Shown: in pieces, positions 10,485-60,412 of the stretch
Layout: every line of letters begins with the position of its first letter
How positions within the stretch are numbered: the stretch's first letter is position 1
Sequence record: OR786310.1
From: Escherichia phage ETEC-TG
Direction: 5' to 3' (one strand)
Length of the DNA: 64,000 bases
Notes under the pieces: model-generated
What the model saw: the letters and a program-made list of their open reading frames with translations, nothing else
The model's database searches: none
Told to the model about the DNA's origin: nothing
Position numbers and translations under genes: made by a program

Positions 10485-10727
10485 ATGAGAAAATTTTTAA
10501 TAGGTATGTTTTGTACATATCCTGATAATAAAGTCAGTTCTACGAAAGTCTGGAACGCTGTAGGTATGTCGGTTATGACAGGCATGTTTATCTTTTTAGG
10601 AATAGAAAAAGAAATTCCTGAATGGATGGGTTGGGCTTTTGTTTTCATGATAACTCCTTCTCGCCTCATGAAAAATCTTATTGATTTACGCTGGGGCAGA
10701 TCACAATCTACCAAAGAGGATGACTAA
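10485..10727 (+). CDS. Small membrane protein (two predicted TM helices; holin-like)
   Basis: 80 aa, GGGGAG RBS, two hydrophobic stretches, charged C-terminus. Confidence 0.4.
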   Translation: MRKFLIGMFCTYPDNKVSSTKVWNAVGMSVMTGMFIFLGIEKEIPEWMGWAFVFMITPSRLMKNLIDLRWGRSQSTKEDD

Positions 10728-31001: not shown

Positions 31002-31280
31002 TTAAAATGGTTCGTTAGTCTCCATCATATATTCTGCTTCTAGTTCTTCCATATGCTTTCTAAATTGGAAAGCAATTTCTGCTACAGTTACATTTAAATC
31101 TTTTTCAAAAACTTCTGTAGAGCCTTCATAAAAACGAATACCGTCAATTAAAAGCCCTCCGTGGTAATCCCAATCACTTTCACGAGAAAGCGGGTTAGGC
31201 TCTTCATAATAGTAATCCACCTCCACAACTAAGGCTTTCCCGTTACAAGTGGTGTATTCAAAATCAAAAGTGTTAATCAT
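31002..31280 (-). CDS. Hypothetical protein
   Basis: 92 aa, acidic; ATGA overlap with upstream gene. Confidence 0.4.
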   Translation of the reverse strand: MINTFDFEYTTCNGKALVVEVDYYYEEPNPLSRESDWDYHGGLLIDGIRFYEGSTEVFEKDLNVTVAEIAFQFRKHMEELEAEYMMETNEPF

Positions 31281-32224
31281 TATAGCTCCTCAAATAAAAG
31301 TCTACGACGCTCATTCAACACATCAATGTGATAATGAGTCCTGACATACTTAGCTAATGCTAATCCTTTCTCCATGCAAACATCGGGAGCACTTAATAAG
31401 TATTCCGTAATATCTTTCCACTCGGAAGGTGTTTCAGCAAAGAATAACAAATCTTTAAACTCTTGCGTATGATAATTCTCACGAGGAGAACAGATCAAAG
31501 GTAAACCCTTAGCACCTGCCTCAAGAATTTTAAGATTGCTTTTTGCATTATTAAACACGTTATCAATCAATGGCGCAAGACTGATTTGATGACCATCGTA
31601 AGATTCCATGTAGTTGGCATATGGTCTTACACCTTCATAAACACAAGTTGGTGCTACATTTTCTCTGATTACAGACCATTCACGACTACTTAAAACTTCA
31701 GAATCCCTACGAAAACCACATATTGTAAGATCTTTACCAAAATCGGGCAAGATAGCCAAGTCTTGTTTATGTGTTTCACTTCCAGCCCAGACTAATGGAG
31801 TTTTGGAGTAGCGATCACGGGTCAACACAAATTGACCTTCATCGTAAGGAAGTCCATTAGGGATTATGTGCACATTATCATTGTATTGTGAAAGTTCAAC
31901 TTGCAAAGCAGGTGTCGTAGTTGTAACAAGATCGCTGTGCTCTAAAAACCATTTTAAATGTTCACGAATACCTGATTCAAAAATACCTTCTAACATGTGT
32001 CCTTTTGGAATAACTAAAGAGTCATCCAAATCCATAACCATTTTAAAGCCTAGGTTTTTAAGGGCTAAAAAGCCCTGTTTACCTTTTGTTGGCACCCCGT
32101 TAAAAACGAAAACGTTGTGTTTAGGTTGTGAAGAGAACTGCCTTGAGTAAGGCAGCACTACCCTATGGAAATCGCAAACACTATAATTGATTCCGTTACG
32201 ATTGTCAAGAATTATTTGTCCCAT
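31280..32224 (-). CDS. Glycosyltransferase, GT-B fold (paralog 1)
   Basis: 314 aa; C-terminal KSNLKILEAGAKGLPLICS resembles GT1/GT4 nucleotide-sugar binding region; paralog of adjacent gene. Confidence 0.5.
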   Translation of the reverse strand: MGQIILDNRNGINYSVCDFHRVVLPYSRQFSSQPKHNVFVFNGVPTKGKQGFLALKNLGFKMVMDLDDSLVIPKGHMLEGIFESGIREHLKWFLEHSDLVTTTTPALQVELSQYNDNVHIIPNGLPYDEGQFVLTRDRYSKTPLVWAGSETHKQDLAILPDFGKDLTICGFRRDSEVLSSREWSVIRENVAPTCVYEGVRPYANYMESYDGHQISLAPLIDNVFNNAKSNLKILEAGAKGLPLICSPRENYHTQEFKDLLFFAETPSEWKDITEYLLSAPDVCMEKGLALAKYVRTHYHIDVLNERRRLLFEEL

Positions 32225-32231
32225 ACTTCAC

Positions 32232-33179
32232 CTACAAACTTTCAATAACCTGGCGTCGCAACTCATTTGCATCTGCCAGATTATAATGTGTTCGAACATG
32301 TTCAGCCAAGAACAAGCCACGATCTTCCCGATAGTTTGGATTGCGAAGAAGCTTAACAATTTCGTAATGCCATTCTGCTTTGTTCTCTGCGTAAGCAACA
32401 GCACGAGCATCTACAGGGTTAAAATAAGGTAATACTTTAGAACAAACAATCGGAATACCTTTTGCTCCAGCTTCCAGGATTTTGAGATTACTTTTACAAT
32501 TATTAAAATCATTATCTACCAAAGGAGCTATAGCAATAGCATGACTTTCGTAAACACTCATGTAATTATCTAAATCTTTTACAGCGGCTTTATATTTGGC
32601 ATTTGGTAAATTTCTGCGAATCTTAATCCATTCTTGTCCCGTGATGCTCTGTGATGCTTCATATCCCGCAATAGTAAGAAGTTCATCATCGAAAGTATTA
32701 GAGACTAGTCGTAAATCTGGTTCGTGACTAGCACCGCCAGCCCATACAACAGGGGTACCGGATGAACGATCATTTGACAAAGTGAATTGTCCACTATCAA
32801 AAGGAAGTGCATTTCGGATCACAACAACATTCCTATTTAAGTGACGGATCTTATATGCCAAATATTCTGTAGTCACAATAACCACATCAGCAAGCTTAAC
32901 CATAGCTACAATAGCATGAGTGTTTGACTCGTATAGATTTGCTAAATAATGTTCTGGATTAAGTTGGTAGAAATCATCTAAATCTACAACAATCTTAACA
33001 CCTTGACGTTTCAAAGATAAAACGTATTCTGCACCTTTAGAGTGGATACGGTTAAACACAACAACATCTTTCTTAGGTTGAAGATTATGGTTGTTAAATG
33101 GCATAACAATACGATGATAGTCACAACCGCTGTGAGGTTTTGCATCAATTTTTAGTTTAGACCATTTTTTATTTGACAT
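32232..33179 (-). CDS. Glycosyltransferase, GT-B fold (paralog 2)
   Basis: 315 aa; KSNLKILEAGAKGIPIVCS; collinear similarity to 31280-32224 product. Confidence 0.5.
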   Translation of the reverse strand: MSNKKWSKLKIDAKPHSGCDYHRIVMPFNNHNLQPKKDVVVFNRIHSKGAEYVLSLKRQGVKIVVDLDDFYQLNPEHYLANLYESNTHAIVAMVKLADVVIVTTEYLAYKIRHLNRNVVVIRNALPFDSGQFTLSNDRSSGTPVVWAGGASHEPDLRLVSNTFDDELLTIAGYEASQSITGQEWIKIRRNLPNAKYKAAVKDLDNYMSVYESHAIAIAPLVDNDFNNCKSNLKILEAGAKGIPIVCSKVLPYFNPVDARAVAYAENKAEWHYEIVKLLRNPNYREDRGLFLAEHVRTHYNLADANELRRQVIESL

Positions 33180-33852
33180 GTGCTAGTGCCTCCTCATAGG
33201 AAATTCGGATTTTCCCATTTTTAATATCCTCTAAAGATGCTTTATATTCTTCCCAGTTAATCCCGATAGCAGCTTCTTTCTCTTCTTTTGTCAGATTAGC
33301 AAAAGGCATAGGATTGTTTCCAAAAACATCGTCTGGGTGGATATAAGCCATGATACGAAGTGGACAAGGTGTTGCCTGAATACCATGATTCAAACCAGCA
33401 GCTTGTAAACGGTGTCCCCATTCAGCATCTTCAAAACCATAACCATGAGTGTAAGGACGGAAATAACCCATCTTCTCAACAACGGCACGAGAATACATTG
33501 CAAATTGACACATTGCAAGTTCCCAGAGAATAACTTCTCCTTTGCTTCCAACAACTTTATCTTTGAAGTACTCCGGCATACCAAAGAAATCCCATCCTCC
33601 AGAAACAGCTTGATCTACAAAGTATGTTTCCCATCCTTCCATGACTGGGTAGCAATCGTCGTCAAAAATAAACCAATAATCATAACCTTCTTCATAAAAC
33701 TGGTGCATAAGTTCATTCCTGGCATAAGCTACACCTTTACGATCTGGATCGTTGAATACTCGAAAATCTGCACGTGGATCTGTTACAAGGTAGTCTTTAA
33801 GTGGACGGACACCTACAGTGATAACACCCACTCCGATTTTAATATTTTCCAT
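33169..33852 (-). CDS. Glycosyltransferase, GT-A fold (DxD)
   Basis: 227 aa; FIFDDDCYP DxD-type motif; Rossmann-like N-terminus IGVGVITVG. Confidence 0.5.
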   Translation of the reverse strand: MENIKIGVGVITVGVRPLKDYLVTDPRADFRVFNDPDRKGVAYARNELMHQFYEEGYDYWFIFDDDCYPVMEGWETYFVDQAVSGGWDFFGMPEYFKDKVVGSKGEVILWELAMCQFAMYSRAVVEKMGYFRPYTHGYGFEDAEWGHRLQAAGLNHGIQATPCPLRIMAYIHPDDVFGNNPMPFANLTKEEKEAAIGINWEEYKASLEDIKNGKIRISYEEALAHVK

Positions 33853-33860
33853 TTTCTCTC

Positions 33861-34424
33861 CTAAATAGTTTTACTGTGATCGTGACAGTGTAATAAATGA
33901 TGTATAGACCGTTGAGGATTTGTTTGACCTAATCTGTAAATGTGAAACAGATACATTCCCCGCATCAATCCTAACCTCTTTCCTTTTTCATGTAAAGTGT
34001 GAGAGAAAATTAAGTCGAATTGGATAGATTTTTCTTCGAAAGGAATTTCATTCCACAATGATTTTCTAAAAAGCAAAAAGAAACCTGCCAGAGGTGTTCC
34101 GAAAGGAACTTCTTCAACACTCACTTTATGATATTCTCTTGCAATCTTAGCATATTCTATATGGTTTAGAATATCTGGATCATCGTTAATTTGGTTAGAG
34201 AAAAGCTGATAACCACTGCCTAACCTGTTACAAGTTGCACCTATTACATCAAAAGGCGGGTTTGACATAACAAGCTCTTCAAGCATAGATGGTTGATCAG
34301 GTAGGAGGAACATTGTATCGGTATCTCTTAAACACACCCAACTATCATCTGGAAGAACGGCAATGGCTTCATTGATAGCCTTGCCGATATTTCCTGTCAG
34401 ATAGGGAGTAATATAATAAATCAT
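33861..34424 (-). CDS. Putative glycosyltransferase-like protein
   Basis: 187 aa; CLRDTDTMF DxD-like motif; in glycosyltransferase cluster. Confidence 0.4.
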   Translation of the reverse strand: MIYYITPYLTGNIGKAINEAIAVLPDDSWVCLRDTDTMFLLPDQPSMLEELVMSNPPFDVIGATCNRLGSGYQLFSNQINDDPDILNHIEYAKIAREYHKVSVEEVPFGTPLAGFFLLFRKSLWNEIPFEEKSIQFDLIFSHTLHEKGKRLGLMRGMYLFHIYRLGQTNPQRSIHHLLHCHDHSKTI

Positions 34425-34633: not shown

Positions 34634-34889
34634 TTACAACCTCCTTAATAGCTACTGCACAGTTCTTACAAATACATTGACCTTTGTTCTTAGAAATTTC
34701 AATGTAAGGTTCATTTTCGTTTTCTCCGCGTCGTGAGTCGTATATTACTGTATTGAAGCAGACAACGCAAATGTTTTTAATAACGACATATTTTTGCACT
34801 TTCTGTTTAGTGCGAAAATTGACTTCAATGACTTCTCCCATCAGTGAATCTCCCCTAAAATGTTGTTTTGAGACATTACTGCGGAGCAT
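34611..34889 (-). CDS. Small Cys-containing protein
   Basis: 92 aa; CVVC ... CICKNC. Confidence 0.35.
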   Translation of the reverse strand: MLRSNVSKQHFRGDSLMGEVIEVNFRTKQKVQKYVVIKNICVVCFNTVIYDSRRGENENEPYIEISKNKGQCICKNCAVAIKEVVNENAWDQ

Positions 34890-35125
34890 TCTACAGCATC
34901 ATGAGTCCTTGCAAAACGCTCCCACAATACAGCATCTACTTTAAGAACCATACAAGGATAAATACTGTCGTTGATCATGTCAATGCTATATTTATCTACA
35001 TCCTTTTCATCTTCCATAAACAAAGTAGCATATGCTTCTAAATGCTTACGGGTGTAGTATACATCCTCTTCAGTAAGACCGACAACCAGGTAACTTGCTA
35101 CAACAACAGTATTATCTTCTTGCAT
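34841..35125 (-). CDS. Hypothetical protein (start moved to internal ATG with AAAGGGGAG RBS)
   Basis: MQEDNTVVVASYLVVG...; RBS-supported start at 35125. Confidence 0.4.
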   Translation of the reverse strand: MQEDNTVVVASYLVVGLTEEDVYYTRKHLEAYATLFMEDEKDVDKYSIDMINDSIYPCMVLKVDAVLWERFARTHDAVECSAVMSQNNILGEIH

Positions 35126-35126
35126 T

Positions 35127-35648
35127 TTAACTCCCCTTTGGTAGATAGAAACCATGCACTTTATCTCGATAAACAAGACGCATATCACGTTCCCAGTGTG
35201 TCCTTATATTCCGTTTCTTGAAGTATAGAGCACCTTTAGTAACATCTAAAACAGACCGCAATTCAGGAAAATGTTTCTCTAAATAAAGTAAACGCTCCGC
35301 TATTGCTTTTGCTTCTTGCCACTTATCTTTCTCTGTTACGTTAAAAGTTTTCGCATATGAGAATTGCCCTTTCTGGAACAAGACTCCTCTGACTGTGTTA
35401 GGGAAGTAGGTATCATTTCTTCTGTTGATTACCACATTCCCAACGGCATTCATTCCTTTTTTACCCAGACCTCGACCTTCTGCGTAAATTGCACAAGCTA
35501 ATAGAATTTTATCATTATATTGCTTTGTACATTTGTGAACTACTTTAGCGGTTTTTACGTTTGCAGCTTCGGCTTTCGCCACAACAGGTGTAAATGTAAA
35601 AGCAGTTAAGGATAGTAACGCAACTGTTACAAAGTTTTTTATCAGCAA
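35127..35648 (-). CDS. Secreted cell-wall hydrolase, SleB/CwlJ-like (candidate endolysin)
   Basis: 173 aa; signal peptide (LSLTAFTFTPVVAKA); AVGNVVINRRNDTYFPNTVRGVLFQKGQFS matches SleB-type Hydrolase_2 motif; TTG start with AAGGAGG RBS. Confidence 0.6.
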   Translation of the reverse strand: MLIKNFVTVALLSLTAFTFTPVVAKAEAANVKTAKVVHKCTKQYNDKILLACAIYAEGRGLGKKGMNAVGNVVINRRNDTYFPNTVRGVLFQKGQFSYAKTFNVTEKDKWQEAKAIAERLLYLEKHFPELRSVLDVTKGALYFKKRNIRTHWERDMRLVYRDKVHGFYLPKGS

Positions 35649-35710
35649 ATTTTGCCTCCTTTTTAAGTTAACGAATTTCTAGTATAACACGATAGAGGCT
35701 TTATTGCAAG

Positions 35711-35733
35711 AGGGGGATTTCTCCCCCTCAAAA
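35711..35733 (-). other. Palindromic stem-loop GAGGGGGA-TTTCT-CCCCCTC between TerD gene and hydrolase gene
   Basis: Perfect G/C-rich inverted repeat; near-identical copy at 17872-17890. Confidence 0.45.
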
Positions 35734-35747
35734 TCATTTGTTAATTA

Positions 35748-36350
35748 TTATGGACATTCATACCATTCTTTTTTACCACCGAAGGCCATCACCACATCGC
35801 AAATATCCAGACCAGCTTTACCTACACCATATGCTTTCAGCTTCCATTCCCCATCTTCACGAACCAAGGAAGCCACGTGGCAGATTGTGTTACCAGCTAC
35901 TTCAGGAGCCAGGAAGTCAAAATCCAGAATTTCCACATTGCGTTCGGAGTCAAAGATTTTAAGCATACCTTCAGAAGCATGACCAAAACGTTTCAGACCT
36001 GTATCATCATCAATGGTCAGAACAAAGGCAATCTCTTGTGCATCAGGAGAGATTTTAGCCAGAGTAATATCAATCTGCTCCATGCTGCCAGTCCCATCAC
36101 GAACATCGTCACCAGCGAAGGTAGAACGTTCAGGATCAAACTTGTTAGCGTAGCAAACCAGATGACGTGCAGACAGCATTTCAGGATTGCCAGCGGCATT
36201 ATGACGACAAACCAGTGCACTTACATCCAGATCCAGTTTAGAATCAGATTTCCAAGAGAATTCCAGGCGCAGTTCTTTCAGAGCCGGAGCAACTTTCTTC
36301 AGGGAAATTTTTTCGCTAGAGCCTTTTTTCAGGGAAATTTTATCAGTCAT
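35748..36350 (-). CDS. terD: TerD-family stress-response protein
   Basis: 200 aa; duplicated N-terminal EKISLKK strand; length and composition typical of TerD/TerE/TerZ family; GAGGAGA RBS. Confidence 0.65.
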   Translation of the reverse strand: MTDKISLKKGSSEKISLKKVAPALKELRLEFSWKSDSKLDLDVSALVCRHNAAGNPEMLSARHLVCYANKFDPERSTFAGDDVRDGTGSMEQIDITLAKISPDAQEIAFVLTIDDDTGLKRFGHASEGMLKIFDSERNVEILDFDFLAPEVAGNTICHVASLVREDGEWKLKAYGVGKAGLDICDVVMAFGGKKEWYECP

Positions 36351-36365
36351 CTTTTGTCTCCTCTA

Positions 36366-36635
36366 TTATTTAAGTGTAATACCAGTTACAGTCAATTCTA
36401 CTTCCAAAAGCTTAGATGTGTTTTGGATTGATACTAATTGTGCATGATGGTTTAGTTCTACAGCGGAATAATCATTCTCCCCATCGTCTACTTTTAAATA
36501 AACAATGATTTCACTAAGGTCTAAACCATTTTCGTCAAATGCATTTTCATAGACGAAAGTATCTCCTACATCCAAATCTTTAATGGTAAGGCATCGTTTA
36601 TTTACTTTTTGCTCATCAATTTCGAAGTTTAACAC
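36366..36635 (-). CDS. Small protein, paralog A of the DLDVG family
   Basis: 89 aa; DLDVGDTFVYENAFDENGLD ... EVELTVTGITLK; paralogous to 37657-37935. Confidence 0.5.
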   Translation of the reverse strand: MLNFEIDEQKVNKRCLTIKDLDVGDTFVYENAFDENGLDLSEIIVYLKVDDGENDYSAVELNHHAQLVSIQNTSKLLEVELTVTGITLK

Positions 36636-36864
36636 TTCTTCCTCCTAATGTTATCTCCGGTTTGTATATACGAAGAATTATAGCATTTTCATTTTCTTTG
36701 TCAACCCATTCTTCATAATCGGGCCATACATGAATCTCTACTCTACTTACAATATCTTCCATTCGCACAGTCCCAATGAAATACTCTTTGAGACTGCGCA
36801 TAATGAAAGCTTCTCTCTCGCGCCAATAATTTTCTACGACTTGAGAGGCAAGCTCGTCGATCAT
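36616..36864 (-). CDS. Hypothetical protein
   Basis: 82 aa. Confidence 0.4.
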   Translation of the reverse strand: MIDELASQVVENYWREREAFIMRSLKEYFIGTVRMEDIVSRVEIHVWPDYEEWVDKENENAIILRIYKPEITLGGRSVKLRN

Positions 36865-37655
36865 TTTTTAGCACCTACTTTAACAACCCACTCTCCGAAC
36901 TCTTCAGATAAAAGTTTGTCATAAAGCTCTGAATCTGTCAAGTCTAAATCTTTAATGCCAATAAAACCAACATTATCATAAGCATTTGCCAGTTCTTTCA
37001 GGAAGCCAAACTTCTCATTACCAACGCCAACCATGAACCAATAAATAGGTTTATTCTTATTCTCTTCAATAAGACGACGAACAGCACTAGGATCACCATT
37101 CTCACCATCCGTCTGGAAGAATACAACACCAGGGGTAACGTCAGCACCTGGTTCAGATACAGCTACAACTTTTTCACGCTCTACAGACACTGTTTCAGTT
37201 TTACCAAGCAGACGATTAAAGAAGCCTTTCTTTGGAGCCTCCTCTTGTACCACTTGTTTAGTGGTAATATATTTGGTAACAGTGCCAAAATACTCATCGT
37301 AGATATCTGCCATTACAGGGGCGTAATTTGTTCCACCTCCGATACGAACATTGCGCATACATTTACCAACATAGTCATCGTAAACGTCTGCTGTTGCTGG
37401 AGTAAGCTCTTGGGAACTCGTATTAAAGGCCCACATATCAATTTGTTGATTATCGTCGAACAGCATACCAAAAGGAAGCAGTTTACCTACAAAATCACTC
37501 ACTACCCCACTAGAATATAGACCATGCATACTACCAGAAATATCTAGAGCACATGCTACACGAAGAACAATCTTACCTTCATTCAGGTTCTTATTCTTTT
37601 TCAGAGAGAAAGCAAGGTTTTCTTGACGTTTTTTCAGGCTGATTTTCTCGGACAT
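36861..37655 (-). CDS. von Willebrand factor A (vWA) domain protein, TerY-like
   Basis: 264 aa; MIDAS DISGSM plus GGTN; N-terminal MSEKISLKK shared with TerD; AAGGAG RBS. Confidence 0.6.
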   Translation of the reverse strand: MSEKISLKKRQENLAFSLKKNKNLNEGKIVLRVACALDISGSMHGLYSSGVVSDFVGKLLPFGMLFDDNQQIDMWAFNTSSQELTPATADVYDDYVGKCMRNVRIGGGTNYAPVMADIYDEYFGTVTKYITTKQVVQEEAPKKGFFNRLLGKTETVSVEREKVVAVSEPGADVTPGVVFFQTDGENGDPSAVRRLIEENKNKPIYWFMVGVGNEKFGFLKELANAYDNVGFIGIKDLDLTDSELYDKLLSEEFGEWVVKVGAKK

Positions 37656-37656
37656 A

Positions 37657-37935
37657 TTATTTCTCCTTCTTAAGTGTAATATTGGTAACTTCTAAATCTA
37701 CTTCCACCATATTTGTATCTGGTGGGATGCAATGAGTATAGCCTCGTTGTGCTAGTGATCCATTAATACAAATCGCACTGTTTGTGGAATTTTTAATGAA
37801 CACCAAGTTATGGTAGGTATCCAACCCTGCGTCTTTATAGGCATCATAATACATGAATGTGGCCCCTACGTCAAGATCTTCGAAAGCAATAGGTAAATCC
37901 TGACTTTTTTCTTCTTGAATATTGAATCTAAACAT
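37657..37935 (-). CDS. Small protein, paralog B of the DLDVG family
   Basis: Start moved to ATG with GAGGAGG RBS; DLDVGATFMYYDAYKDAGLD ... EVDLEVTNITLK. Confidence 0.5.
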   Translation of the reverse strand: MFRFNIQEEKSQDLPIAFEDLDVGATFMYYDAYKDAGLDTYHNLVFIKNSTNSAICINGSLAQRGYTHCIPPDTNMVEVDLEVTNITLKKEK

Positions 37936-38491
37936 GCATACCTCCTCTACCAATTTTGAAGCCCAAATCGTAAGCTTCCTTAGTGATCTTTTGTAACTCA
38001 CTTATAGGAAGTGTTACAAGAGGATCATCTTCTTCAATTTCCATCTTGTCATCTTCTGTTTCAATGAGAGTATTATGCACTTTGTGATAAGGGTTGTCAA
38101 CACGTTTAAACTTATTCTTTTCTGTGCTGAAAAAACAATCTGGATCTTCTTCACCATCACCCCAACCTTGGTTAGGATCTCCGTCAGATTGTTCTGTAGG
38201 GATTTCACCTGTAAAGTACTCTTCCAGCACCATAGCAATACCGTCCCTTGGATTTGAGGAATGCATTAAATCACAAACCTTACCCCAATCCATAGCCCAT
38301 TCGAACCGTTCACGAACGCCATTTTCATCCTCCTTTCCAGAGAAAACACAACCATAACTATCATAGTTGCCATACATCTCTTCAATAACAACACCGTCCT
38401 TCAAAAGAAAGAGATAACAAGGTGATCCGTCGAAAGAAGTAGAAAGGGCAGCTTTGCCCGATTCTTTGCACAAAAAGCTAAAACAACCCAT
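37928..38491 (-). CDS. Hypothetical protein
   Basis: 187 aa, Cys- and acidic-rich. Confidence 0.4.
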   Translation of the reverse strand: MGCFSFLCKESGKAALSTSFDGSPCYLFLLKDGVVIEEMYGNYDSYGCVFSGKEDENGVRERFEWAMDWGKVCDLMHSSNPRDGIAMVLEEYFTGEIPTEQSDGDPNQGWGDGEEDPDCFFSTEKNKFKRVDNPYHKVHNTLIETEDDKMEIEEDDPLVTLPISELQKITKEAYDLGFKIGRGGMHV

Positions 38492-38889
38492 TACAAACCC
38501 TCCTTCAGATTATCAAGAGCTACAGTGGTTTCACAAAATTCTCCATAAGCTTTATGATGTTCCAGAAAAGCTTCGGGTCCACCCCAGTCATTATCTTGTG
38601 TATTCCAGCCATCTATAAAAGCATCTTCAATGATTGTGATCAGTTCCTGTCGAGTCAACGTAATGGTATCAGGTTTCTGCGTAGTTTCCACACGGAACCC
38701 TGGTTCTTCATAAAAACCTTTAGTTATAATGGATTCTAACTCTTCTGCATCACAGAGGAAGTAGCCACAAAGATAACACCAACCGTCATCATCTTTCATT
38801 ACTTCATAAACTTCACCACTTGCCAAATTAGTGAAAAGAGTAGGGTTTGTTACTGTAAGTTTTAAAAGAATACCTGTTGGATTATACAT
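38491..38889 (-). CDS. Hypothetical protein
   Basis: 132 aa; start overlaps stop of upstream micro-gene. Confidence 0.4.
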   Translation of the reverse strand: MYNPTGILLKLTVTNPTLFTNLASGEVYEVMKDDDGWCYLCGYFLCDAEELESIITKGFYEEPGFRVETTQKPDTITLTRQELITIIEDAFIDGWNTQDNDWGGPEAFLEHHKAYGEFCETTVALDNLKEGL

Positions 38890-39055
38890 CTTCTTCCTCC
38901 TCTAAAATATGGAACCCGTAATTACAATAATCCTGAAAGGTTTCGTGTGCAAGATCTTCTATATCCTCTTGAGACATATCATCTTCAATTTCGATATCCA
39001 CAACCTCATTGCATCCACACCAAGCAGTTTCAATATTCACTCGTAATATTTTCAT
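38882..39055 (-). CDS. Small acidic Cys-containing protein (57 aa; not in ORF track)
   Basis: Hand-translated MKILRVNIETAWCGCNEVVDIEIEDDMSQEDIEDLAHETFQDYCNYGFHILEEEEDV; GAGGAGGAGGAG RBS; TAATG overlap. Confidence 0.35.
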   Translation of the reverse strand: MKILRVNIETAWCGCNEVVDIEIEDDMSQEDIEDLAHETFQDYCNYGFHILEEEEDV

Positions 39056-39252
39056 TACTCCTCCTCCTCATTGAAGTCAATATCTGCAAGGAGTTCGAAT
39101 TTACGGAAGTTACGACAACCTTCATAAATATAACAATCACGACAAACTGCTAGAACACTTGGGGGATATATGCCTCCCATCGGTGCGAATCGTTTTTCGT
39201 CATCATAACGGACACCAATGTCTTCATCAATTATATAGATACGGATTCTCAT
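39055..39252 (-). CDS. Small Cys-containing protein
   Basis: 65 aa; CRDC ... C; acidic C-terminus. Confidence 0.35.
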   Translation of the reverse strand: MRIRIYIIDEDIGVRYDDEKRFAPMGGIYPPSVLAVCRDCYIYEGCRNFRKFELLADIDFNEEEE

Positions 39253-40361
39253 TTACCAAGCCCTCGTTTCACAGCAGCTACCATCCCGTCTTCCAGAGAT
39301 TGAACTTCATTAATATAATCAACACGAGCAGCACGGGCTTCCGTATTGATGCGGTTAGTTTCTTCCAGCATCTTAACCAAGTTTTCCTGATCGTGACGCA
39401 GAGTTTCAATATCCAACACTTGACGGTTAGCCAGTGCTGCTGCTTCGATCTGATTCTGTGTGGCAAGATCGCTACCCAGTTTAATTGCCAGGTTAAATTC
39501 ATCAAGAACGTTATTCTGCGTCTCTGCTGCTTTCATTTGACGTAAGCTCTCGATATACATTGAGAAGTTAGCAGAGTAAGCAGGAATAACATTATTTACT
39601 ATGTTACGCGCAGATCGCATTAAGCTTGCAGAAACTTTTTGCATACCTTGTACACGCGGTCCCATTTGGACACACAGTAGGCGCAATGCTTTTAAATCTG
39701 CAATACGAATCTCCAGAAGATCCAAAGTATCTCGGATCACTTGTCGCTGTTCTACTGCATCTTCTGGAAGAGCAGCCAAAGCTTGTTCTTCTTTTTCATA
39801 GGTTGCTGTTAGAAGCTGCATATCTCGGTTCAAACTTGCAGCATATTGTCCAATAGCTTGATGTAGCTTTTCAAGATATACCAAGGAATCTTCTTCTTTG
39901 CGAATATCCATTTGAAGGTTCTTTACCAACTCTTCAATACGGTTATTAACATTATCAAACTCCCCGAACAGGTCTTCTTTCATACCCATAACTTTTTTAA
40001 TGAGTTTAGTAATACCCTTGCTTTGTTTAATAGAGTTTGGATCAAGTTGTTTTGCCTGTTTAATCAAAGCTGTAAGTCGTTCACTCATCTGATCGCCTTG
40101 ATTACTACGTTGATGTTTTAACACCTCGGCATTCAAGGAACGCAAGGTTGTTCCTGCCTCTGCCCCAATCTCTTCAATCTCTTGTCGGGTCATAGAAGGC
40201 AAAACTGGAACTTCTTGCGGTGCCGCTGGTGCATAAACAGGACTGGCATCTAACACGCTTGGAGCGAATACAGATTTACTTGCATCTGTTGTTGCAGCGA
40301 ATACACTCATTTCAGACTTCTTCTGACCACCAGTAGCTGCTTTTAAAAATGGACTTGTCAT
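39249..40361 (-). CDS. TelA-like (toxic anion resistance family) coiled-coil protein
   Basis: 370 aa, predominantly alpha-helical/coiled-coil with TelA-like length and composition; located with TerC/TerD/vWA genes. Assignment by resemblance and context only. Confidence 0.45.
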   Translation of the reverse strand: MTSPFLKAATGGQKKSEMSVFAATTDASKSVFAPSVLDASPVYAPAAPQEVPVLPSMTRQEIEEIGAEAGTTLRSLNAEVLKHQRSNQGDQMSERLTALIKQAKQLDPNSIKQSKGITKLIKKVMGMKEDLFGEFDNVNNRIEELVKNLQMDIRKEEDSLVYLEKLHQAIGQYAASLNRDMQLLTATYEKEEQALAALPEDAVEQRQVIRDTLDLLEIRIADLKALRLLCVQMGPRVQGMQKVSASLMRSARNIVNNVIPAYSANFSMYIESLRQMKAAETQNNVLDEFNLAIKLGSDLATQNQIEAAALANRQVLDIETLRHDQENLVKMLEETNRINTEARAARVDYINEVQSLEDGMVAAVKRGLGK

Positions 40362-40948
40362 TCTTCATTCTCCTCTTCTGCATCTCTTATATATGGTGAA
40401 ACACCGTACTCTTTAGCTACTTTAACCCAATCATCCCATTTATACAACCATAATTTTCCTTCAGTTCCTTCTTTATCTGATTTCAACCACATGTTAGGTT
40501 GCTTGCCTGGGTACATGCGATTAGGTTTACGATTATAACCTCTAACACATCTTGTCGCAAACCTATCTACCAGAACAAGAACATATTTATACTCGTGGTT
40601 CAACGGCTCTTTGGAAGTGGCTTTAGGATTAGCCCCTAACTCTGCTGCCAGTTTTTGCCAATGAGCACCGTGCCTACTAAACTTACCCATACAACCATCA
40701 ATAGCGTGAGCAATTTCGTGCTTCATTGTATCCACGATCATATCTCTTGTAGAGTTCTTATGCAAGTGCCAATTTACAACAACAATTTTATCTCGGTAGT
40801 TGCACCAACCGAAAGAGTTATTCACTTTGTTTCTAACACAAGCTTTATATCCTGCTTCACGTAACATGTTGTAGTAAACAGGAAAATCTTCTTTTATTTC
40901 CTGCATCACTTCCCACCACAAGAGTTGCAAGTCTCTCTCGGTATGCAT
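40358..40948 (-). CDS. SprT-like zinc metallopeptidase domain protein
   Basis: 196 aa; HEIAH (HExxH) preceded by FGWCNY region typical of SprT-like domains. Confidence 0.55.
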   Translation of the reverse strand: MHTERDLQLLWWEVMQEIKEDFPVYYNMLREAGYKACVRNKVNNSFGWCNYRDKIVVVNWHLHKNSTRDMIVDTMKHEIAHAIDGCMGKFSRHGAHWQKLAAELGANPKATSKEPLNHEYKYVLVLVDRFATRCVRGYNRKPNRMYPGKQPNMWLKSDKEGTEGKLWLYKWDDWVKVAKEYGVSPYIRDAEEENEE

Positions 40949-40950
40949 AC

Positions 40951-41544
40951 TTACACCTTAAAAGCGAAATGCGTGGTCGTGGCTTCAAAATCAGGGCCAG
41001 ATAAACTTGCACTGAAATCTGAAATATTTGTAATTAAAAAGCTTTTATGCATACCTAACACAGCCACGCTTTCAATATCTTCTACTAACATTTCAATCAT
41101 GTTAGAAACATGGCTGAACGTATAGTTTTGTTTTTTGATGGTGTAGAAAGAAAGATTCCCACCTGCTGTATAAGATACTTCTTCAAAATCTTTAATCGTA
41201 TACTGTGTCCCATCAGTAAAGAAAATGGTAGCTTTATTAGTAGCACGTTTCTTGTTTTTTGGTCCTTTTTTACGCTTATTGCGAGTAGGAAAACCATTTG
41301 GAAATACCGTAGCTACAAATTCTTCAGGAGAAACCTCCTTACCGAAATCATAACCATAAGAAACAGCATCTATAAACTCGTCGTCTTCATTTTTAAAATA
41401 ATGAAAATAGGGCCAATTTGAGAGATTATCGAGCATCTTATGCTCATCCACAGCAGAGAACGTATCCCTCAAAGCGCGTGTAATTTGCAAAGCATTAGGC
41501 AAACTTTTAACACCTGTAATGGAAGTACGGATAGAAATTGTCAT
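40951..41544 (-). CDS. Hypothetical protein
   Basis: 197 aa; Lys-rich stretch. Confidence 0.4.
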   Translation of the reverse strand: MTISIRTSITGVKSLPNALQITRALRDTFSAVDEHKMLDNLSNWPYFHYFKNEDDEFIDAVSYGYDFGKEVSPEEFVATVFPNGFPTRNKRKKGPKNKKRATNKATIFFTDGTQYTIKDFEEVSYTAGGNLSFYTIKKQNYTFSHVSNMIEMLVEDIESVAVLGMHKSFLITNISDFSASLSGPDFEATTTHFAFKV

Positions 41545-41558
41545 TGTTTTTCTCCTTA

Positions 41559-41996
41559 TTAACGTCGCTTGCTACGAGATGAACTCTTTTTACTTAAAGG
41601 GCTATTGTAAGATTTACGAGTTGTATAGCTACTATTTGTTTTAAAAGTTTGTCTCGGCTTTTCATAAGTTTTTATCTCTTGTTTAGGCTTACCATAAAAA
41701 TTAGTTTTCGGTTTAGGTGTATTATAATGCTTATTAATAATCGTTCTGTTATCGTTATAATCCCCACTGCTACGATTACTACCGCCACTCATCATATGCC
41801 CTAACAACATACCTGTAGCAAACTCACCAACACCGCTACTACTAGAACCGCCACCATTGTTGATAATAGTTGTATCTCCGTCAGATCCTTGTTGAGCGTA
41901 TTGTTGAGGAGGTTGTTGGTATTGTGCAGGATTTGTTTCATCCTCGCAAGCTGTTAAAAAGATACAACCAATTAAAATCAGGGCTAGTTTTTTCAT
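41559..41996 (-). CDS. Lipoprotein (lipobox LTAC), Gly/Ser-rich
   Basis: Start moved to MKKLALILIGCIFLTAC with GAGGAAA RBS; signal peptide plus lipobox; basic C-terminus. Confidence 0.5.
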   Translation of the reverse strand: MKKLALILIGCIFLTACEDETNPAQYQQPPQQYAQQGSDGDTTIINNGGGSSSSGVGEFATGMLLGHMMSGGSNRSSGDYNDNRTIINKHYNTPKPKTNFYGKPKQEIKTYEKPRQTFKTNSSYTTRKSYNSPLSKKSSSRSKRR

Positions 41997-42179
41997 ATTT
42001 GCTTTCCTCGTTTTGGCTATTAATACATCTGTGTTTGAAATCTCCAGAGAAGCAATAAAGTTGCTCTCCATCTCGGTATAAACTCACTTTACTGCCGTTG
42101 ATTACGCTTGTCAATACAAAAATTACAACAAACAACCCTATTGCAAAACAGATATTTTCAAACACAACCAACAAGTATT

Positions 42180-42530
42180 TCATTTTAAAAATACCTCATC
42201 ATCAGTTTCATTATCCCAGAAGAACAAATCCCAACCATTCGGATCATTCCATTTGGCTGCTGGAGAAGTCCATATTTGTTCGATATCAATATTCAAAACT
42301 TCACCGTTTCGTTTTGAAACAGCTTTAGTTAATTCCCAACGAGATACAGGCTCTACTTCCCCTGAACCACTCCCACAACAAGCTACCACGTTAGGAGGCA
42401 AATTAATTGGATCTTTGGTCACAATCATAACGCTTACCCCAGGGTAAACTTTTGAAAGATAATCTAAAACGTAATCCACATCACCAGATAAATCCCAAAC
42501 AAGTTCTTGAATCTCATCAAAATTATTCAT
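42180..42530 (-). CDS. Hypothetical protein
   Basis: 116 aa; preceded by terminator-like hairpin and GGAGAGA RBS. Confidence 0.45.
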   Translation of the reverse strand: MNNFDEIQELVWDLSGDVDYVLDYLSKVYPGVSVMIVTKDPINLPPNVVACCGSGSGEVEPVSRWELTKAVSKRNGEVLNIDIEQIWTSPAAKWNDPNGWDLFFWDNETDDEVFLK

Positions 42531-42549
42531 AAGTCTCTCCTATAAAATA

Positions 42550-42565
42550 GCCTCCCGAAGGAGGC
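42550..42565 (-). terminator. Rho-independent terminator after TerC gene (UUCG tetraloop)
   Basis: GCCTCC-CGAA-GGAGGC followed on the minus strand by AUUUUAUA. Confidence 0.55.
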
Positions 42566-42572
42566 TCATCTA

Positions 42573-43547
42573 TTAAACAGCAGCTTCTTCTTTTTCAGGG
42601 AAGATAAAGCTTGCAATAACACCAAGAGCTAATGTGCCTAGAACAATCATCAGACTTACGTTAGGGGAAATATCATGCGGGAAGAATGACCACTTGGCAT
42701 GAAGTGTTTCACCGAACGGGTGATACATAAGTTTAGCACCAACAAACACCAGAACCACAGCAACAGCTTTCTCTAAGTGAACCAGATATTTCACAGCTAC
42801 ACTCAACACAAAGAAAAGTGCACGTAAACCAAGAACAGCCATCAGCATTGCAGAATAAACTAGCAGAGGTTCTTGTGTCACACCGATCACAGCCGGAACT
42901 GAATCAAAAGAGAAGACAATATCTGTAAGCTCAATAACAAACACACAAAGAAGAGCAGGAGTTGCATATTTAATACCATTCTTAATGGTGATGAACTTTT
43001 CACCATCCAGTGCATTGTGCACAGGCAGAACTTTACCTACTAAACGAACAGCCCAATGCTTAGAGTAATCAATATCCTCTTCTTCGTCACCACCTTTGAT
43101 GATAGCCACGGCAGACCAAGCTACAATCAAACCGAACAACACTTGGACCGACCAATGAAGGTTAAACAAAGCGGTCCCTGCTGCAACAAAAATACCTCGG
43201 AAGACAATGGCTCCTGCAATCCCCCAAAGTAGAATCTTATGTTGGAGATGTGTGCTCTTAATTCCAAAGCTTGCAAAAATCGCCATGAACACCATCAGGT
43301 TATCTACAGAAAGACTCTTTTCCAACACATAGCCACTTAGGAAAAGCGCGGCAAACTCTTTACCATGTTCTACCCAAATGAATGCGTAATATCCTAAAGC
43401 TAAAGCAATCCAAAAAACAGACCAAAGCAAAGCAGATTTAATTCCAATTTCTTTATTCTCTTTATGACCAAAGAAATCGATACCAATAGACAATGCCAAA
43501 ATACCAACTAAAACAACTACATCAATAATTGGGAAACCGAGTTGCAT
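42573..43547 (-). CDS. terC: TerC-family integral membrane protein
   Basis: 324 aa; multiple TM helices; signature EKSLSVDNLMVF; GAGGAGA RBS. Confidence 0.7.
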   Translation of the reverse strand: MQLGFPIIDVVVLVGILALSIGIDFFGHKENKEIGIKSALLWSVFWIALALGYYAFIWVEHGKEFAALFLSGYVLEKSLSVDNLMVFMAIFASFGIKSTHLQHKILLWGIAGAIVFRGIFVAAGTALFNLHWSVQVLFGLIVAWSAVAIIKGGDEEEDIDYSKHWAVRLVGKVLPVHNALDGEKFITIKNGIKYATPALLCVFVIELTDIVFSFDSVPAVIGVTQEPLLVYSAMLMAVLGLRALFFVLSVAVKYLVHLEKAVAVVLVFVGAKLMYHPFGETLHAKWSFFPHDISPNVSLMIVLGTLALGVIASFIFPEKEEAAV

Positions 43548-43595
43548 TCTTTTCTCCTCTCTTTGCGGGGAACTATTCCCCGCTTCATGTGATAT

Positions 43596-43623
43596 ATCTT
43601 ACTCTTTTTAAGAACTGTGTCAA
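43596..43623 (-). promoter_or_regulatory. Sigma70-like promoter (TTGACA-N16-TAAGAT) upstream of TerC gene
   Basis: Minus-strand -35 TTGACA (43618-43623) inside conserved AAGTGTTGACA motif; -10-like TAAGAT 16 nt downstream. Confidence 0.4.
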
Positions 43624-43626
43624 CAC

Positions 43627-43848
43627 TTATTTTGTTGAATGAGAGGAAAAGATTCCTCGTAATACCGCCAGAATAAACGAAACACAAACCACGGTCCAGA
43701 AGGTTACTGGGACAGTGATATCTGCATGACCCATAACTTCAGCAACATAGTTGTAAGCCAGCAACAGTAACCAAGCTGGAATCAAACTAAGCATAAAAGC
43801 AATAACAAAAAAGCTTACCACTGCAACAATACCTGCAAAAACACCCAT
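43627..43848 (-). CDS. Small membrane protein (two TM helices)
   Basis: 73 aa, hydrophobic. Confidence 0.45.
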   Translation of the reverse strand: MGVFAGIVAVVSFFVIAFMLSLIPAWLLLLAYNYVAEVMGHADITVPVTFWTVVCVSFILAVLRGIFSSHSTK

Positions 43849-43860
43849 ACTAATCTCCTC

Positions 43861-44334
43861 TTAAAGTTTATAAATAGTCACATCGTGACCTGTTTTTACT
43901 AAAGTTTCTTCAATCATCACTTGGATGATAGCCCAATTACCTCCAGCATATCCAGCGCCAATCATAGGTAAGCCGATCTTACATTTTTGGTCACGGAGAA
44001 GCAAATCATTAGCCATAGCTATTAGTGCATCGTAAAGTGCATCATAGTCCAACTGACGACCTTTAGCATTGTATCCGTAACGGTATTGCCCGTATAGATT
44101 ATATACCAAAGGGTCTGATTGTTCGTCTGGCACCCCTAAACTAAAACAACCTAGTTTACTTTGATCACCAGCCATTGTGTCTAAGTCTGCTGCATATGCG
44201 TAAGGAAATGCTTGTTTGATTTGTGGGGCAATACCTGCCCCCATATTACACATACAGTTGCAACAATGAGCAATAACAGTTACTTCACCTGCTTTAGCGG
44301 CATCAATAAGATTACCTCTTTTCATTTTAAGCAT
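43861..44334 (-). CDS. Macro domain protein (ADP-ribose binding/processing)
   Basis: Start moved to ATG with TAAGGAG RBS; motifs GNLIDAAKAGEVTVIAHCCNCMCNMGAGIA and IGLPMIGAGYAGG resemble macro-domain signatures. Confidence 0.5.
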   Translation of the reverse strand: MLKMKRGNLIDAAKAGEVTVIAHCCNCMCNMGAGIAPQIKQAFPYAYAADLDTMAGDQSKLGCFSLGVPDEQSDPLVYNLYGQYRYGYNAKGRQLDYDALYDALIAMANDLLLRDQKCKIGLPMIGAGYAGGNWAIIQVMIEETLVKTGHDVTIYKL

Positions 44335-44347
44335 TTTTAGCTCCTTA

Positions 44348-45175
44348 TTACAGAATGTGTTGTTTTGTGTAACGATCCAAGAATTCAAAGTTTTCAGCAT
44401 ACTTTGAAATTCGGTTGTAACCTTCTCCCAAACATCCAAAGAAAAGTTGCTCTACATAGTAATGTGGCAATTGGCTAAGAATGATTTTGAAGTCTTCATG
44501 ATTTTGGCCCATAAGATACTTAATAGGACGAACAAGACACTGTGCATCACGTTCTTCATTAATCATTTTAACAAACGCTTCTGGTGTATTAATGTAGTTA
44601 AAATTCAGTTTAGCTTCGGTATCTGCTTGATTACCTTCGTATTTTGCAAAATACAAGAAGTAAACATCATTTTTAACTTGATTTTCATCAAGGATCTCAA
44701 TCAGTTTGTCTTCATGCGTTCCAGTGATATTTACATCATCAATGAATACAAGCTTCTTATCACCCCAGAATTCTTTGTTGCAGTAGAATGTATCCCCATC
44801 AATAAGTTTCTTACGACTAGCTTTATCCAAGAAACCATAATCGTTGATATAGCTAACTTTACGATGAATAATGTCCAGTTCTGCTGAACGACCTTGATCA
44901 TATTGTGATTGCAACATATTAAAGTAATTAATAAAATGATCTGTCATCATTGTTGCAGCATTATGCACATGGTTGTAAGGAGAAGGGATGATAACAAATT
45001 GTTCCCCAATATGTTTCATTGCCACTTGAGCAAAAAACTGAAGTGCCAATTCTTTACCCATACGACGCGCAGCCTGGTTACTACCAAATTTCAATTTTGA
45101 ATAATCTTTAATATCAAAAGTAGCAGTTTCCAGGTCATCAAATTTATTTGCAAAAATTTGAGTTTGATTACGCAT
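44348..45175 (-). CDS. Phosphoribosyltransferase-fold (PRTase) protein
   Basis: 275 aa; PRPP-binding-loop-like motif KLVFIDDVNITGT; GAGGAGA RBS. Confidence 0.55.
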   Translation of the reverse strand: MRNQTQIFANKFDDLETATFDIKDYSKLKFGSNQAARRMGKELALQFFAQVAMKHIGEQFVIIPSPYNHVHNAATMMTDHFINYFNMLQSQYDQGRSAELDIIHRKVSYINDYGFLDKASRKKLIDGDTFYCNKEFWGDKKLVFIDDVNITGTHEDKLIEILDENQVKNDVYFLYFAKYEGNQADTEAKLNFNYINTPEAFVKMINEERDAQCLVRPIKYLMGQNHEDFKIILSQLPHYYVEQLFFGCLGEGYNRISKYAENFEFLDRYTKQHIL

Positions 45176-54029: not shown

Positions 54030-54392
54030 TTAACCTAAACACATACGTGCGATCAGACCCTGGATGAGTTTATCTGCTTCTTCCCGATCATAGTCGGTAT
54101 CTTCTATACCACCATCTTCGTCACGATAAACTTTACCTTCCAGGTACCCAGCATCGATCAAACCAATAATCAAATCGAACTGCCAGCAAGAGTTACCGAA
54201 AGGGCGTTTTCCACTGAAACTATCTTCTTCTTCCCAAAGCGTAGAGAGCAGTCGTCTGAAATATTCACGCACAGTAACAGTGCCAAGATCATCGTCTTCA
54301 AAAACAACATCTAAAGCATCTGGTTCAGCTTTCTCTACAACAGGCACATAACGTTGACCATTAATAACAACATCTACGATTGTTTCTCTCAT
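54030..54392 (-). CDS. Hypothetical acidic protein
   Basis: 120 aa. Confidence 0.4.
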   Translation of the reverse strand: MRETIVDVVINGQRYVPVVEKAEPDALDVVFEDDDLGTVTVREYFRRLLSTLWEEEDSFSGKRPFGNSCWQFDLIIGLIDAGYLEGKVYRDEDGGIEDTDYDREEADKLIQGLIARMCLG

Positions 54393-54751
54393 TTTTCCTC
54401 CTTTTTGTATTCAATGAACATATCTGCATAGTAAGCTTTACGTTCTTCAAATTTAGCAGGGTTTACCACAATGAACAACACCTTTCTGTTGTCTTGTGGT
54501 TCTTTGACTGTAATATATAACTCTTTTGTGCAATAGAAACCTGTGGCTTTGTAAGCGTCACCCCAATTATCCACTCCACGATCTATACGATCAAACTTGC
54601 AGTTATACTTTTTATCATCCACCTGGTAGACAGCTTCACCACCATACCAAGTGAAGAATTGGCTACCTTCCACCCCAATCTTGAAACCATCACGGGCGGC
54701 TGTAGCATTGGTGGCAATCATCAACATCAGGATACAAAGTAGCCTTTTCAT
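54389..54751 (-). CDS. Secreted protein (signal peptide)
   Basis: 120 aa; N-terminal MKRLLCILMLMIATNATAA. Confidence 0.45.
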   Translation of the reverse strand: MKRLLCILMLMIATNATAARDGFKIGVEGSQFFTWYGGEAVYQVDDKKYNCKFDRIDRGVDNWGDAYKATGFYCTKELYITVKEPQDNRKVLFIVVNPAKFEERKAYYADMFIEYKKEEK

Positions 54752-59879: not shown

Positions 59880-60044
59880 ATGATTTTAAACTTCATCATC
59901 AACTTGTGTTTGACATTGGGACTACTCTGTGCAATAGTATCCCCTCTGGTTGGTGAATATTGTTCTGAACTGGCGATGTTTATAGTTCTTGGTGCAGCTA
60001 TTGCTAATATGTTTGTCGCTGCGATTTGTATGTTGTGGGAATAG
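59880..60044 (+). CDS. Small membrane protein (54 aa; not in ORF track)
   Basis: MILNFIINLCLTLGLLCAIVSPLVGEYCSELAMFIVLGAAIANMFVAAICMLWE; GGAGAGA RBS. Confidence 0.35.
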   Translation: MILNFIINLCLTLGLLCAIVSPLVGEYCSELAMFIVLGAAIANMFVAAICMLWE

Positions 60045-60055
60045 GAGGGAAGTTT

Positions 60056-60412
60056 ATGAAAAAATTAATCTTAGCCACATTGCTGGCTACCGTAAGCTTC
60101 ACCACTTACGCTCAAAAATTTGTAGCAGTTAAAACAGATATTGGTAAAGATGTTGTGATCACAGGCAACAAATTTTACTATACACCTGGAAATGGTGTTC
60201 TAGAAGAGTGCCAAGATGTTGAGGCATATACAGGAAAAGAAGATAACACGGAACGTCCTTTTTATTCGATTATAGCTACTTGCAAAAATGAAATAGTAGC
60301 TATTAAACAATACAAAGATGCCCCTGGAGGAGAGTACTTATTAATCAAGAATATTAAGAGTGAAAAAACTGCAAAGTTTACAGTAATTATTTTAAAAGGA
60401 GAAACGTTCTAA
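60056..60412 (+). CDS. Secreted protein (signal peptide)
   Basis: MKKLILATLLATVSFTTYAQ signal peptide; AGGAGGG RBS. Confidence 0.45.
   Translation: MKKLILATLLATVSFTTYAQKFVAVKTDIGKDVVITGNKFYYTPGNGVLEECQDVEAYTGKEDNTERPFYSIIATCKNEIVAIKQYKDAPGGEYLLIKNIKSEKTAKFTVIILKGETF

Follow-up and report, generated by a model that had tools for sequence, protein, structure and literature searches.

Must a phage enzyme that carries a cell-wall hydrolase domain behind an apparent export signal be the enzyme that lyses the host? The question is raised by a minus-strand open reading frame (ORF) in a stretch of 64,000 nucleotides of Escherichia phage ETEC-TG DNA (sequence record OR786310.1), referred to here as the window, whose product, hereafter the hydrolase, had been proposed in an initial annotation as the likely endolysin. 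We conclude that the hydrolase is probably an exported and active muralytic enzyme, and we lean, by a small step, towards its being an accessory to the lysis machinery and not its core, because the same genomes carry a T4-type lysozyme and spanins outside the window. The gene is already known, with annotations in over 130 public phage genomes. The window DNA shares 99.0-99.5% identity with genomes of Phapecoctavirus (dw-ec, phAPEC8, anhysbys and others). GenBank names the orthologue in phAPEC8, gp067, annotated since 2012, a 'putative cell wall hydrolase SleB', and RefSeq names it an 'endolysin'; the phi92 counterpart is gp170. The gene and its parts are placed as follows.

35127..35648, minus strand: coding sequence of a 173-amino-acid (aa) precursor, orthologue of phAPEC8 gp067 and phi92 gp170, with TTG at 35648-35646 and TAA at 35129-35127.
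35571..35648, minus strand: putative Sec signal peptide (residues 1-26, MLIKNFVTVALLSLTAFTFTPVVAKA), which signal peptidase I is predicted to cut off after A-K-A26.
35130..35570, minus strand: predicted mature periplasmic enzyme, residues 27-173, a single SleB/CwlJ-type catalytic domain.
35478..35480, minus strand: codon of Glu57, the predicted catalytic glutamate, which aligns with the Glu of SleB YGESRGE.
35655..35661 (35661-35655), minus strand: Shine-Dalgarno sequence AAGGAGG, 6 nucleotides (nt) upstream of the TTG.

The SleB/CwlJ-type family proposed in the initial annotation was confirmed by a profile search, in which the hydrolase matched Pfam Hydrolase_2 (PF07486) with an E-value of 1.9e-17 and 64.1 bits, where the gathering score is 27 bits, over residues 62-168 and profile positions 3-100 of 100. 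It also matched PHROG 938 'endolysin' (1.2e-18), and a sequence search of the PDB returned 4f55 and 4fet, both SleB catalytic domains, as the sole matches. An AlphaFold2 model built on an alignment of 100 homologues reached a mean predicted local distance difference test (pLDDT) score of 90.7, with lower confidence in residues 1-30 only. When this model was compared with the PDB using Foldseek, the same two SleB structures were the only significant matches (probability 1.00, TM-score 0.69-0.77 on the target, root-mean-square deviation ~3.1-3.3 Å). Glu57 and Arg76 are invariant across 100-103 homologues. By score, fold and catalytic residue, the hydrolase is a member of Pfam Hydrolase_2, and this assignment is far beyond chance.

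By analogy with SleB, the hydrolase would cleave glycan strands at the bonds that join N-acetylmuramic acid (MurNAc) to N-acetylglucosamine (GlcNAc), with lytic transglycosylase chemistry. A true SleB orthologue was ruled out, as the score against the SleB equivalog TIGR02869 (51.7 bits) is below its cutoff of 236.5, no PG_binding_1 domain was found by Pfam before the catalytic domain, and the host forms no spores. Pfam in fact finds Hydrolase_2 only, and thus no wall-binding domain.

The coordinates of the ORF were reproduced exactly (35127..35648, minus strand, 173 codons). Its TTG start and the AAGGAGG ahead of it are invariant in four of four aligned phages from three lineages, and the first in-frame Met after the TTG is residue 66; since this lies past the catalytic Glu, the TTG is the credible start. 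A conserved TTG behind a perfect AAGGAGG would fit selection for low expression, which is a conjecture. The predicted mature protein has 147 aa, a mass of 17.0 kDa, an isoelectric point of 9.9 and exactly two Cys, at positions 40 and 52; residues 27-45 form a short linker in the model.

The N-terminus resembles a signal peptide, as the initial annotation had also read it, with recognizable n-, h- and c-regions. A positive n-region, M1-K4 (M-L-I-K), is followed by 20 uncharged residues, N5-A24 (NFVTVALLSLTAFTFTPVVA), and then by K-A↓E-A (the arrow marks the predicted cleavage). The c-region has a Pro at -6 and A-K-A at -3 to -1, followed by E27. Among relatives the -2 residue varies (AKA, AQA, GIA, ATA, VHA) while -3 and -1 remain small, as expected for a signal-peptidase I site. 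A hydrophobic N-terminal core is present in 95 of the 103 family members, making export a trait of the single-domain branch and not of one phage; the signals of a T5-like homologue (MKAALLLVAALTFSFSSQA↓S) and of an rV5-like homologue (…LSLPVVA↓A) look equally canonical. The low confidence of the AlphaFold2 model at the N-terminus agrees with the assignment of residues 1-26 to a signal peptide. A signal peptide has also been reported for the Certrevirus homologue CB7_83, which is toxic when expressed in Escherichia coli (PMC7344957). Cleavage after Ala26 and a periplasmic location of the enzyme are therefore predicted from the sequence. Lipoprotein identity was ruled out, as there is no lipobox Cys.

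Signal-peptide-like N-termini were also seen in the products of 54389-54751 (minus strand) and 60026-60412 (plus strand) (MKRLLCILMLMIATNATAAR… and …MKKLILATLLATVSFTTYAQ…, respectively), suggesting that the phage exports several proteins to the periplasm.

We then asked what other lysis functions accompany the hydrolase. In the window, 89 ORFs were called; with the hydrolase and five obvious replication enzymes set aside, the remaining 83 were concatenated and submitted to two Pfam scans, in which the 'Serglycin' matches are artefacts of the Gly-Ser linkers. No second muralytic domain was found by Pfam in these 83 ORFs, baseplate and tail proteins included, so that the hydrolase is indeed the sole clear peptidoglycan hydrolase in the window, as had been claimed.

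The rest of the genome gives a different answer. The phAPEC8 protein gp172, a 'putative bacteriophage T4-like lysozyme' of 166 aa with no hydrophobic N-terminus or signal sequence, matches Pfam Phage_lysozyme and shows 47% identity along its entire length to T4-like phage genes annotated as 'endolysin protein e' or 'soluble lysozyme'. Aligned with what we take to be the sequence of T4 lysozyme, it retains Glu, Asp and Thr at the catalytic positions. Directly upstream of the large terminase gene, phAPEC8 also encodes an overlapping i-spanin/o-spanin pair, gp121/gp120, in which a single membrane helix lies at the N-terminus of gp121 and gp120 carries a lipobox (LMMTG↓C); this type is listed as the phi92/phAPEC8 spanin family by Kongari et al. 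(PMC6139136). In dw-ec, the genome closest to the window, the lysozyme is 98.8% identical and the spanins are 100% and 99% identical, all three outside the window-equivalent stretch, and neither the lysozyme nor the two spanins were found in the window. The initial annotation had named another canonical endolysin elsewhere in the genome as the finding that would speak against its proposal; the T4 E-type lysozyme of phAPEC8 and dw-ec is such an enzyme, and with the spanins also encoded in the same genomes, the role of likely endolysin is not supported.

The two enzymes are about equally widespread. In the phage collection, records at ≥95% identity number 64 for the hydrolase and 64 for the lysozyme, and further records number 67 (60-80%) and 68 (60-90%), respectively, giving totals of ~131-132 Stephanstirmvirinae records each. 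The DNA region of the window is shared by 131 records, which agrees in number with the enzyme totals. The two-lysin arrangement is already published: a Phapecoctavirus genome announcement mentions 'two lytic proteins', PF00959 and PF07486 (PMC10793346). The literature is inconsistent on this point, as the hydrolase is one of two lytic proteins there and the sole endolysin elsewhere (PMC10282059).

For the holin, all phAPEC8 ORFs with a hydrophobic segment were listed. No holin-family match was obtained among nine small phAPEC8 proteins searched against PHROGs (seven predicted to span the membrane, together with gp068 and the 'lipoprotein' gp089) or among eight transmembrane candidates searched against Pfam. 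At 10485-10727 (plus strand), between tail-spike and baseplate genes, the window encodes a protein of 80 aa that has a pair of hydrophobic segments and ends in a highly charged C-terminus. This orthologue of phAPEC8 gp94 (PHROG 1322, 'membrane protein') is conserved in rV5 and PVP-SE1. Its holin-like topology and its location in a late module make it a candidate for the missing holin. Another small membrane protein, of 73 aa with two strong transmembrane segments, is encoded at 43627-43848 (minus strand), immediately upstream of TerC, and matches no family other than a phage-only PHROG with no assigned function.

The surroundings of the gene were examined for transcription signals and for any link to lysis genes. 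The relevant features are these.

35748..36350, minus strand: TerD-domain gene, the last of the upstream Ter unit, given as context and outside the unit of the hydrolase.
35710..35729, minus strand: GC-rich hairpin GAGGGGGA-GAAA-UCCCCCUC with an 8-bp stem, between TerD and the hydrolase gene (fold z = -3.2).
35681..35709, minus strand: sigma70-like promoter candidate, TTGCAA, a 17-nt spacer and TATACT with an extended -10 TG, directly after the hairpin.
34841..35125, minus strand: next gene, orthologue of phAPEC8 gp068, encoding an acidic protein of 94 aa, with its ATG 1 nt after the hydrolase stop.

The hydrolase gene had been placed last in the Ter-containing operon, which is wrong: the hairpin and the promoter candidate separate it from TerD and the next gene begins 1 nt downstream, so the hydrolase is the first gene of the following unit. 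In phage ASO2A the hairpin bears the annotation of a rho-independent terminator; the U-tract of the hairpin is weak. Justusliebigvirus Paula and phage PsgM04F, whose proteins are 75% and 68% identical, respectively, retain the hairpin, -35, extended -10, Shine-Dalgarno sequence and TTG amid drifting flanks, and the key bases of the promoter candidate are conserved across Phapecoctavirus, Justusliebigvirus and PsgM04F. The candidate is weaker than the annotated phAPEC8 host-type promoters, which have a perfect TTGACA. To judge from these motifs, it may serve as a promoter.

Upstream, at 35748-45175 (minus strand), lies a Ter-type stress-response set comprising TerD (35748-36350), a vWA-TerF-like gene (36861-37655), TelA (39249-40361), an SprT-like gene (40358-40948), TerC (42573-43547) and a ComF-like phosphoribosyltransferase gene (44348-45175).

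Downstream, the position of the gp068 orthologue's ATG, 1 nt past the hydrolase stop, indicates that the two genes are co-transcribed; its ribosome-binding site lies inside the 3' end of the hydrolase gene. No transmembrane segment was found in its product, which is not a holin. The same-strand series continues with two more small genes and then four glycosyltransferase genes. These four consecutive glycosyltransferase-like genes (31280-34424, minus strand) are co-directional with the hydrolase gene and apparently co-transcribed behind it; genes of the dTDP-rhamnose pathway are located elsewhere in phAPEC8.

With TerD on one side, a soluble 94-aa protein on the other and the spanins ~51 kb away in phAPEC8, the hydrolase gene has no lysis-cassette linkage. 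Lysis genes are scattered in many large phages, which makes such linkage a weak criterion for an endolysin. No ORF with a transmembrane segment adjoins the gene on either strand, and hence there is no pinholin candidate in cis. The holin-independent or pinholin-type lysis that the initial annotation had derived from its endolysin loses its support once that role falls, and no adjoining membrane protein speaks for it.

Taken together, the data would fit the following scheme. The hydrolase would head a transcript, started at its own weak sigma70-like promoter, that runs on into three small and four glycosyltransferase genes, and would be translated from its conserved weak TTG. The host Sec system would export the precursor, and cleavage after Ala26 would free a 17-kDa mature enzyme in the periplasm, where Glu57 would act as the catalytic acid on MurNAc-GlcNAc bonds, as in the lytic transglycosylase SleB. 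Reaching the wall without a holin, it might loosen or remodel the sacculus during infection and so make the final lysis faster or fuller, which is our preferred guess. The weak promoter and weak start codon could keep the exported enzyme low enough for the sacculus to be loosened without premature lysis, although this part is conjecture. The principal endolysin would most likely be the T4 E-type lysozyme (the gp172 orthologue), acting with a holin and the gp121/gp120 spanins, and we infer an accessory role for the hydrolase. Because the T4 E-type lysozyme coexists with it, the hydrolase does not qualify for the endolysin class as a sole lysin. It does have a peptidoglycan-degrading domain, and absence from virions was observed only for the distant PA5oct homologue; as a functional label for the hydrolase, 'endolysin' is unproven.

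Several points weigh against this scheme. A paper on near-identical phages found no signal peptides (PMC10698182), and while other statements of that paper on the protein were judged unreliable, its conflict with our reading of the N-terminus remains. The promoter candidate fits at only 9 of 12 positions, a level of agreement that is frequent in this AT-rich DNA (22 found versus 10.5 expected from shuffles). The T4-type lysozyme gene adjoins neither a holin nor the spanins, and since no holin was found either, the case for the canonical lysis pathway is one of homology only. Before lysis time, a free muralytic enzyme in the periplasm should also endanger the infected cell. RefSeq and several authors label the hydrolase an endolysin, the paper on Phapecoctavirus SKA64 names the Hydrolase_2 protein as the sole one (PMC10282059), and the toxic effect that the CB7 homologue has in E. 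coli agrees equally well with a true lysin.

These last points belong to a reading in which the hydrolase is the principal endolysin, exported early through Sec like Lys44 of phage fOg44 and held inactive in the energised envelope until triggered by a holin or some other event that depolarises the membrane, the T4-type lysozyme being redundant or serving another purpose. An exported muralytic enzyme, by family, fold and signal-like N-terminus, is what this reading calls for, and RefSeq and the SKA64 authors have annotated the protein accordingly. The PA5oct homologue was not found in virions and was called a potential endolysin (PMC7318152), and in Certrevirus the toxic CB7 homologue adjoins a holin candidate with two transmembrane domains (2-TMD; PMC7344957). 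We nevertheless consider it unlikely, as a similar number of related records conserve spanins and a full-length T4 E orthologue, T5-like phages have a different enzyme beside their holin, and a holin-like neighbour is absent both here and in Vequintavirus, which has rIIA in that place. The hydrolase also heads a glycosyltransferase unit and is not among late or lysis genes. The location of the gene in early or replication modules in three phage groups (including PMC12210895) could instead point to an enzyme with no part in lysis, a host-takeover or envelope-remodelling factor that would be exported early, as other periplasmic phage proteins are, and act, for example, on growth or division, wall recycling or superinfection. 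The conserved sigma70-type promoter candidate and weak TTG, the co-transcription with glycosyltransferase genes and the retention of the hydrolase even when a different type has replaced the other lysin would all suit such a factor. This reading is put forward without direct evidence, and an active periplasmic glycan-cleaving enzyme would inevitably weaken the wall, so that a contribution to lysis is hard to exclude; we regard it, too, as improbable.

Far less probable than either is that the N-terminus is a signal-anchor-release (SAR) domain, which would tether the enzyme in an inactive state in the inner membrane until a pinholin depolarises that membrane and so releases it, as for P1 Lyz and phage 21 R. 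The hydrophobic stretch is only moderate (best 15-residue Kyte-Doolittle mean 1.9), and 40% of it is Ala, Ser or Thr as counted from the sequence, as a SAR domain would have it. Against this, the stretch contains no glycine, it is followed by a textbook A-x-A site with a Pro at -6 and conserved -3/-1 residues, no small membrane protein adjoins the gene, and the T5-like and rV5-like homologues carry classic cleavable-looking signals. A virion-associated lysin was ruled out on the export signal, the location in a replication module and the absence of the homologue from PA5oct virions.

The accessory reading implies a correction to existing records, in that automatic 'endolysin' labels on the hydrolase should not be taken to mean the lysis enzyme. 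This matters for enzybiotic mining of these phages and for the annotation of their lysis cassettes.

Some of the records that carry the family are themselves doubtful in their labels. The sequences of MG065650.1, MG065635.1, MG065658.1, MG065655.1, MG065642.1 and OP562383.1, which bear the names 'Campylobacter phage' (B15, C12, C7, C2, A148) and 'Acinetobacter phage ABPW7', match coliphage groups: B15 and ABPW7 carry a 99.4% identical Phapecoctavirus hydrolase, and the others match at the level of Escherichia rV5-like or T5-like records, so the host labels look doubtful. A search of plasmids with the hydrolase gave 37 weak matches, mostly to alphaproteobacterial or Bacillus 'cell wall hydrolase' genes, whose context was uninformative. 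An E. coli 'plasmid' of 137,565 bp (CP057073.1) encodes an rV5-type exported hydrolase, 36% identical, at 40681-41157, and probably represents a Vequintavirus genome deposited under a plasmid label.

Among known systems, the closest are the phAPEC8 gp067 and phi92 gp170 orthologues of the Stephanstirmvirinae. A 99.4% identical protein with the same neighbours occurs in more than 30 records, the single difference being the TTG start read as Leu by tblastn and nothing of substance; in phi92-like phages the orthologue is 60-80% identical, again with the same neighbours. Further away, CB7_83, CR3_087 and their counterparts in rV5 and PVP-SE1 (Vequintavirinae), as well as T5.083 and AKFV33 orf081 (T5-like), share with the hydrolase a single Hydrolase_2 domain behind an apparent signal peptide in ~150-170 aa. 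Their genes lie in early or replication modules and occur together with a different canonical endolysin, as here. An exported SleB-type protein alongside another endolysin is described for PVP-SE1/BME3-like phages (PMC12210895) and for Certrevirus (PMC7344957), and in T5-like phages the M15 peptidase gene adjoins the holin gene, with the SleB-type gene (T5.083, AKFV33 orf081) far off in the early region (PMC3326045; PMC11180984). In contrast to the Stephanstirmvirinae orthologues, these homologues are only 33-37% identical to the hydrolase, have their Cys at other positions and have different neighbours, namely rIIA in Vequintavirus and a 2-TMD holin candidate in Certrevirus. In rV5-like phages, as seen in the Vequintavirus ECP2303 (locus 2995-5474), the exported SleB-type gene and the start of rIIA share 4 nt. 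Such an overlap hints that expression of the SleB-type gene is coupled to that of rIIA, which in T4 is linked to phenotypes of the membrane and of lysis timing.

These parallels lead to a wider proposal, which we advance tentatively and hold to be possible but not the likelier outcome: at least three unrelated groups of large virulent enterobacterial phages (phAPEC8/phi92-like, rV5/PVP-SE1-like and T5-like) would share a dedicated, holin-independent, Sec-exported SleB-type enzyme that cleaves glycan, is expressed from host-type promoters long before lysis and serves to remodel the host wall during infection, lysis itself not being its task. If this is true, a distinct host-takeover class, whether changing growth and division, priming the sacculus or blocking rival phages, has been hidden under the 'endolysin' label. 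A modest but genuine question is in any case raised, namely why several families of large lytic coliphages have kept an exported enzyme of SleB type in addition to their canonical endolysin.

Outside phages, the hydrolase shares its catalytic-domain fold and catalytic Glu with SleB of Bacillus cereus and B. anthracis (PDB 4F55, 4FET), from which it differs in falling far under the equivalog cutoff and in lacking PG_binding_1; its single-domain layout resembles that of CwlJ. Because the host has neither spores nor muramic delta-lactam, its substrate specificity must differ from that of SleB. Lys44 of the Oenococcus phage fOg44, cited in PMC10282059, is reportedly an endolysin with a cleavable Sec signal peptide that is exported independently of a holin. 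It differs from the hydrolase in being the only endolysin of its phage, in acting on a Gram-positive host and in belonging to another catalytic family, whereas a second, cytoplasmic lysozyme is present here. The T4 pathway of E lysozyme, holin and Rz/Rz1-type spanins is also encoded by the hydrolase-bearing genomes (gp172 and gp121/gp120) and is probably their main lysis route. T4 E has an unrelated fold and stays in the cytoplasm until the holin fires, whereas the hydrolase would be exported.

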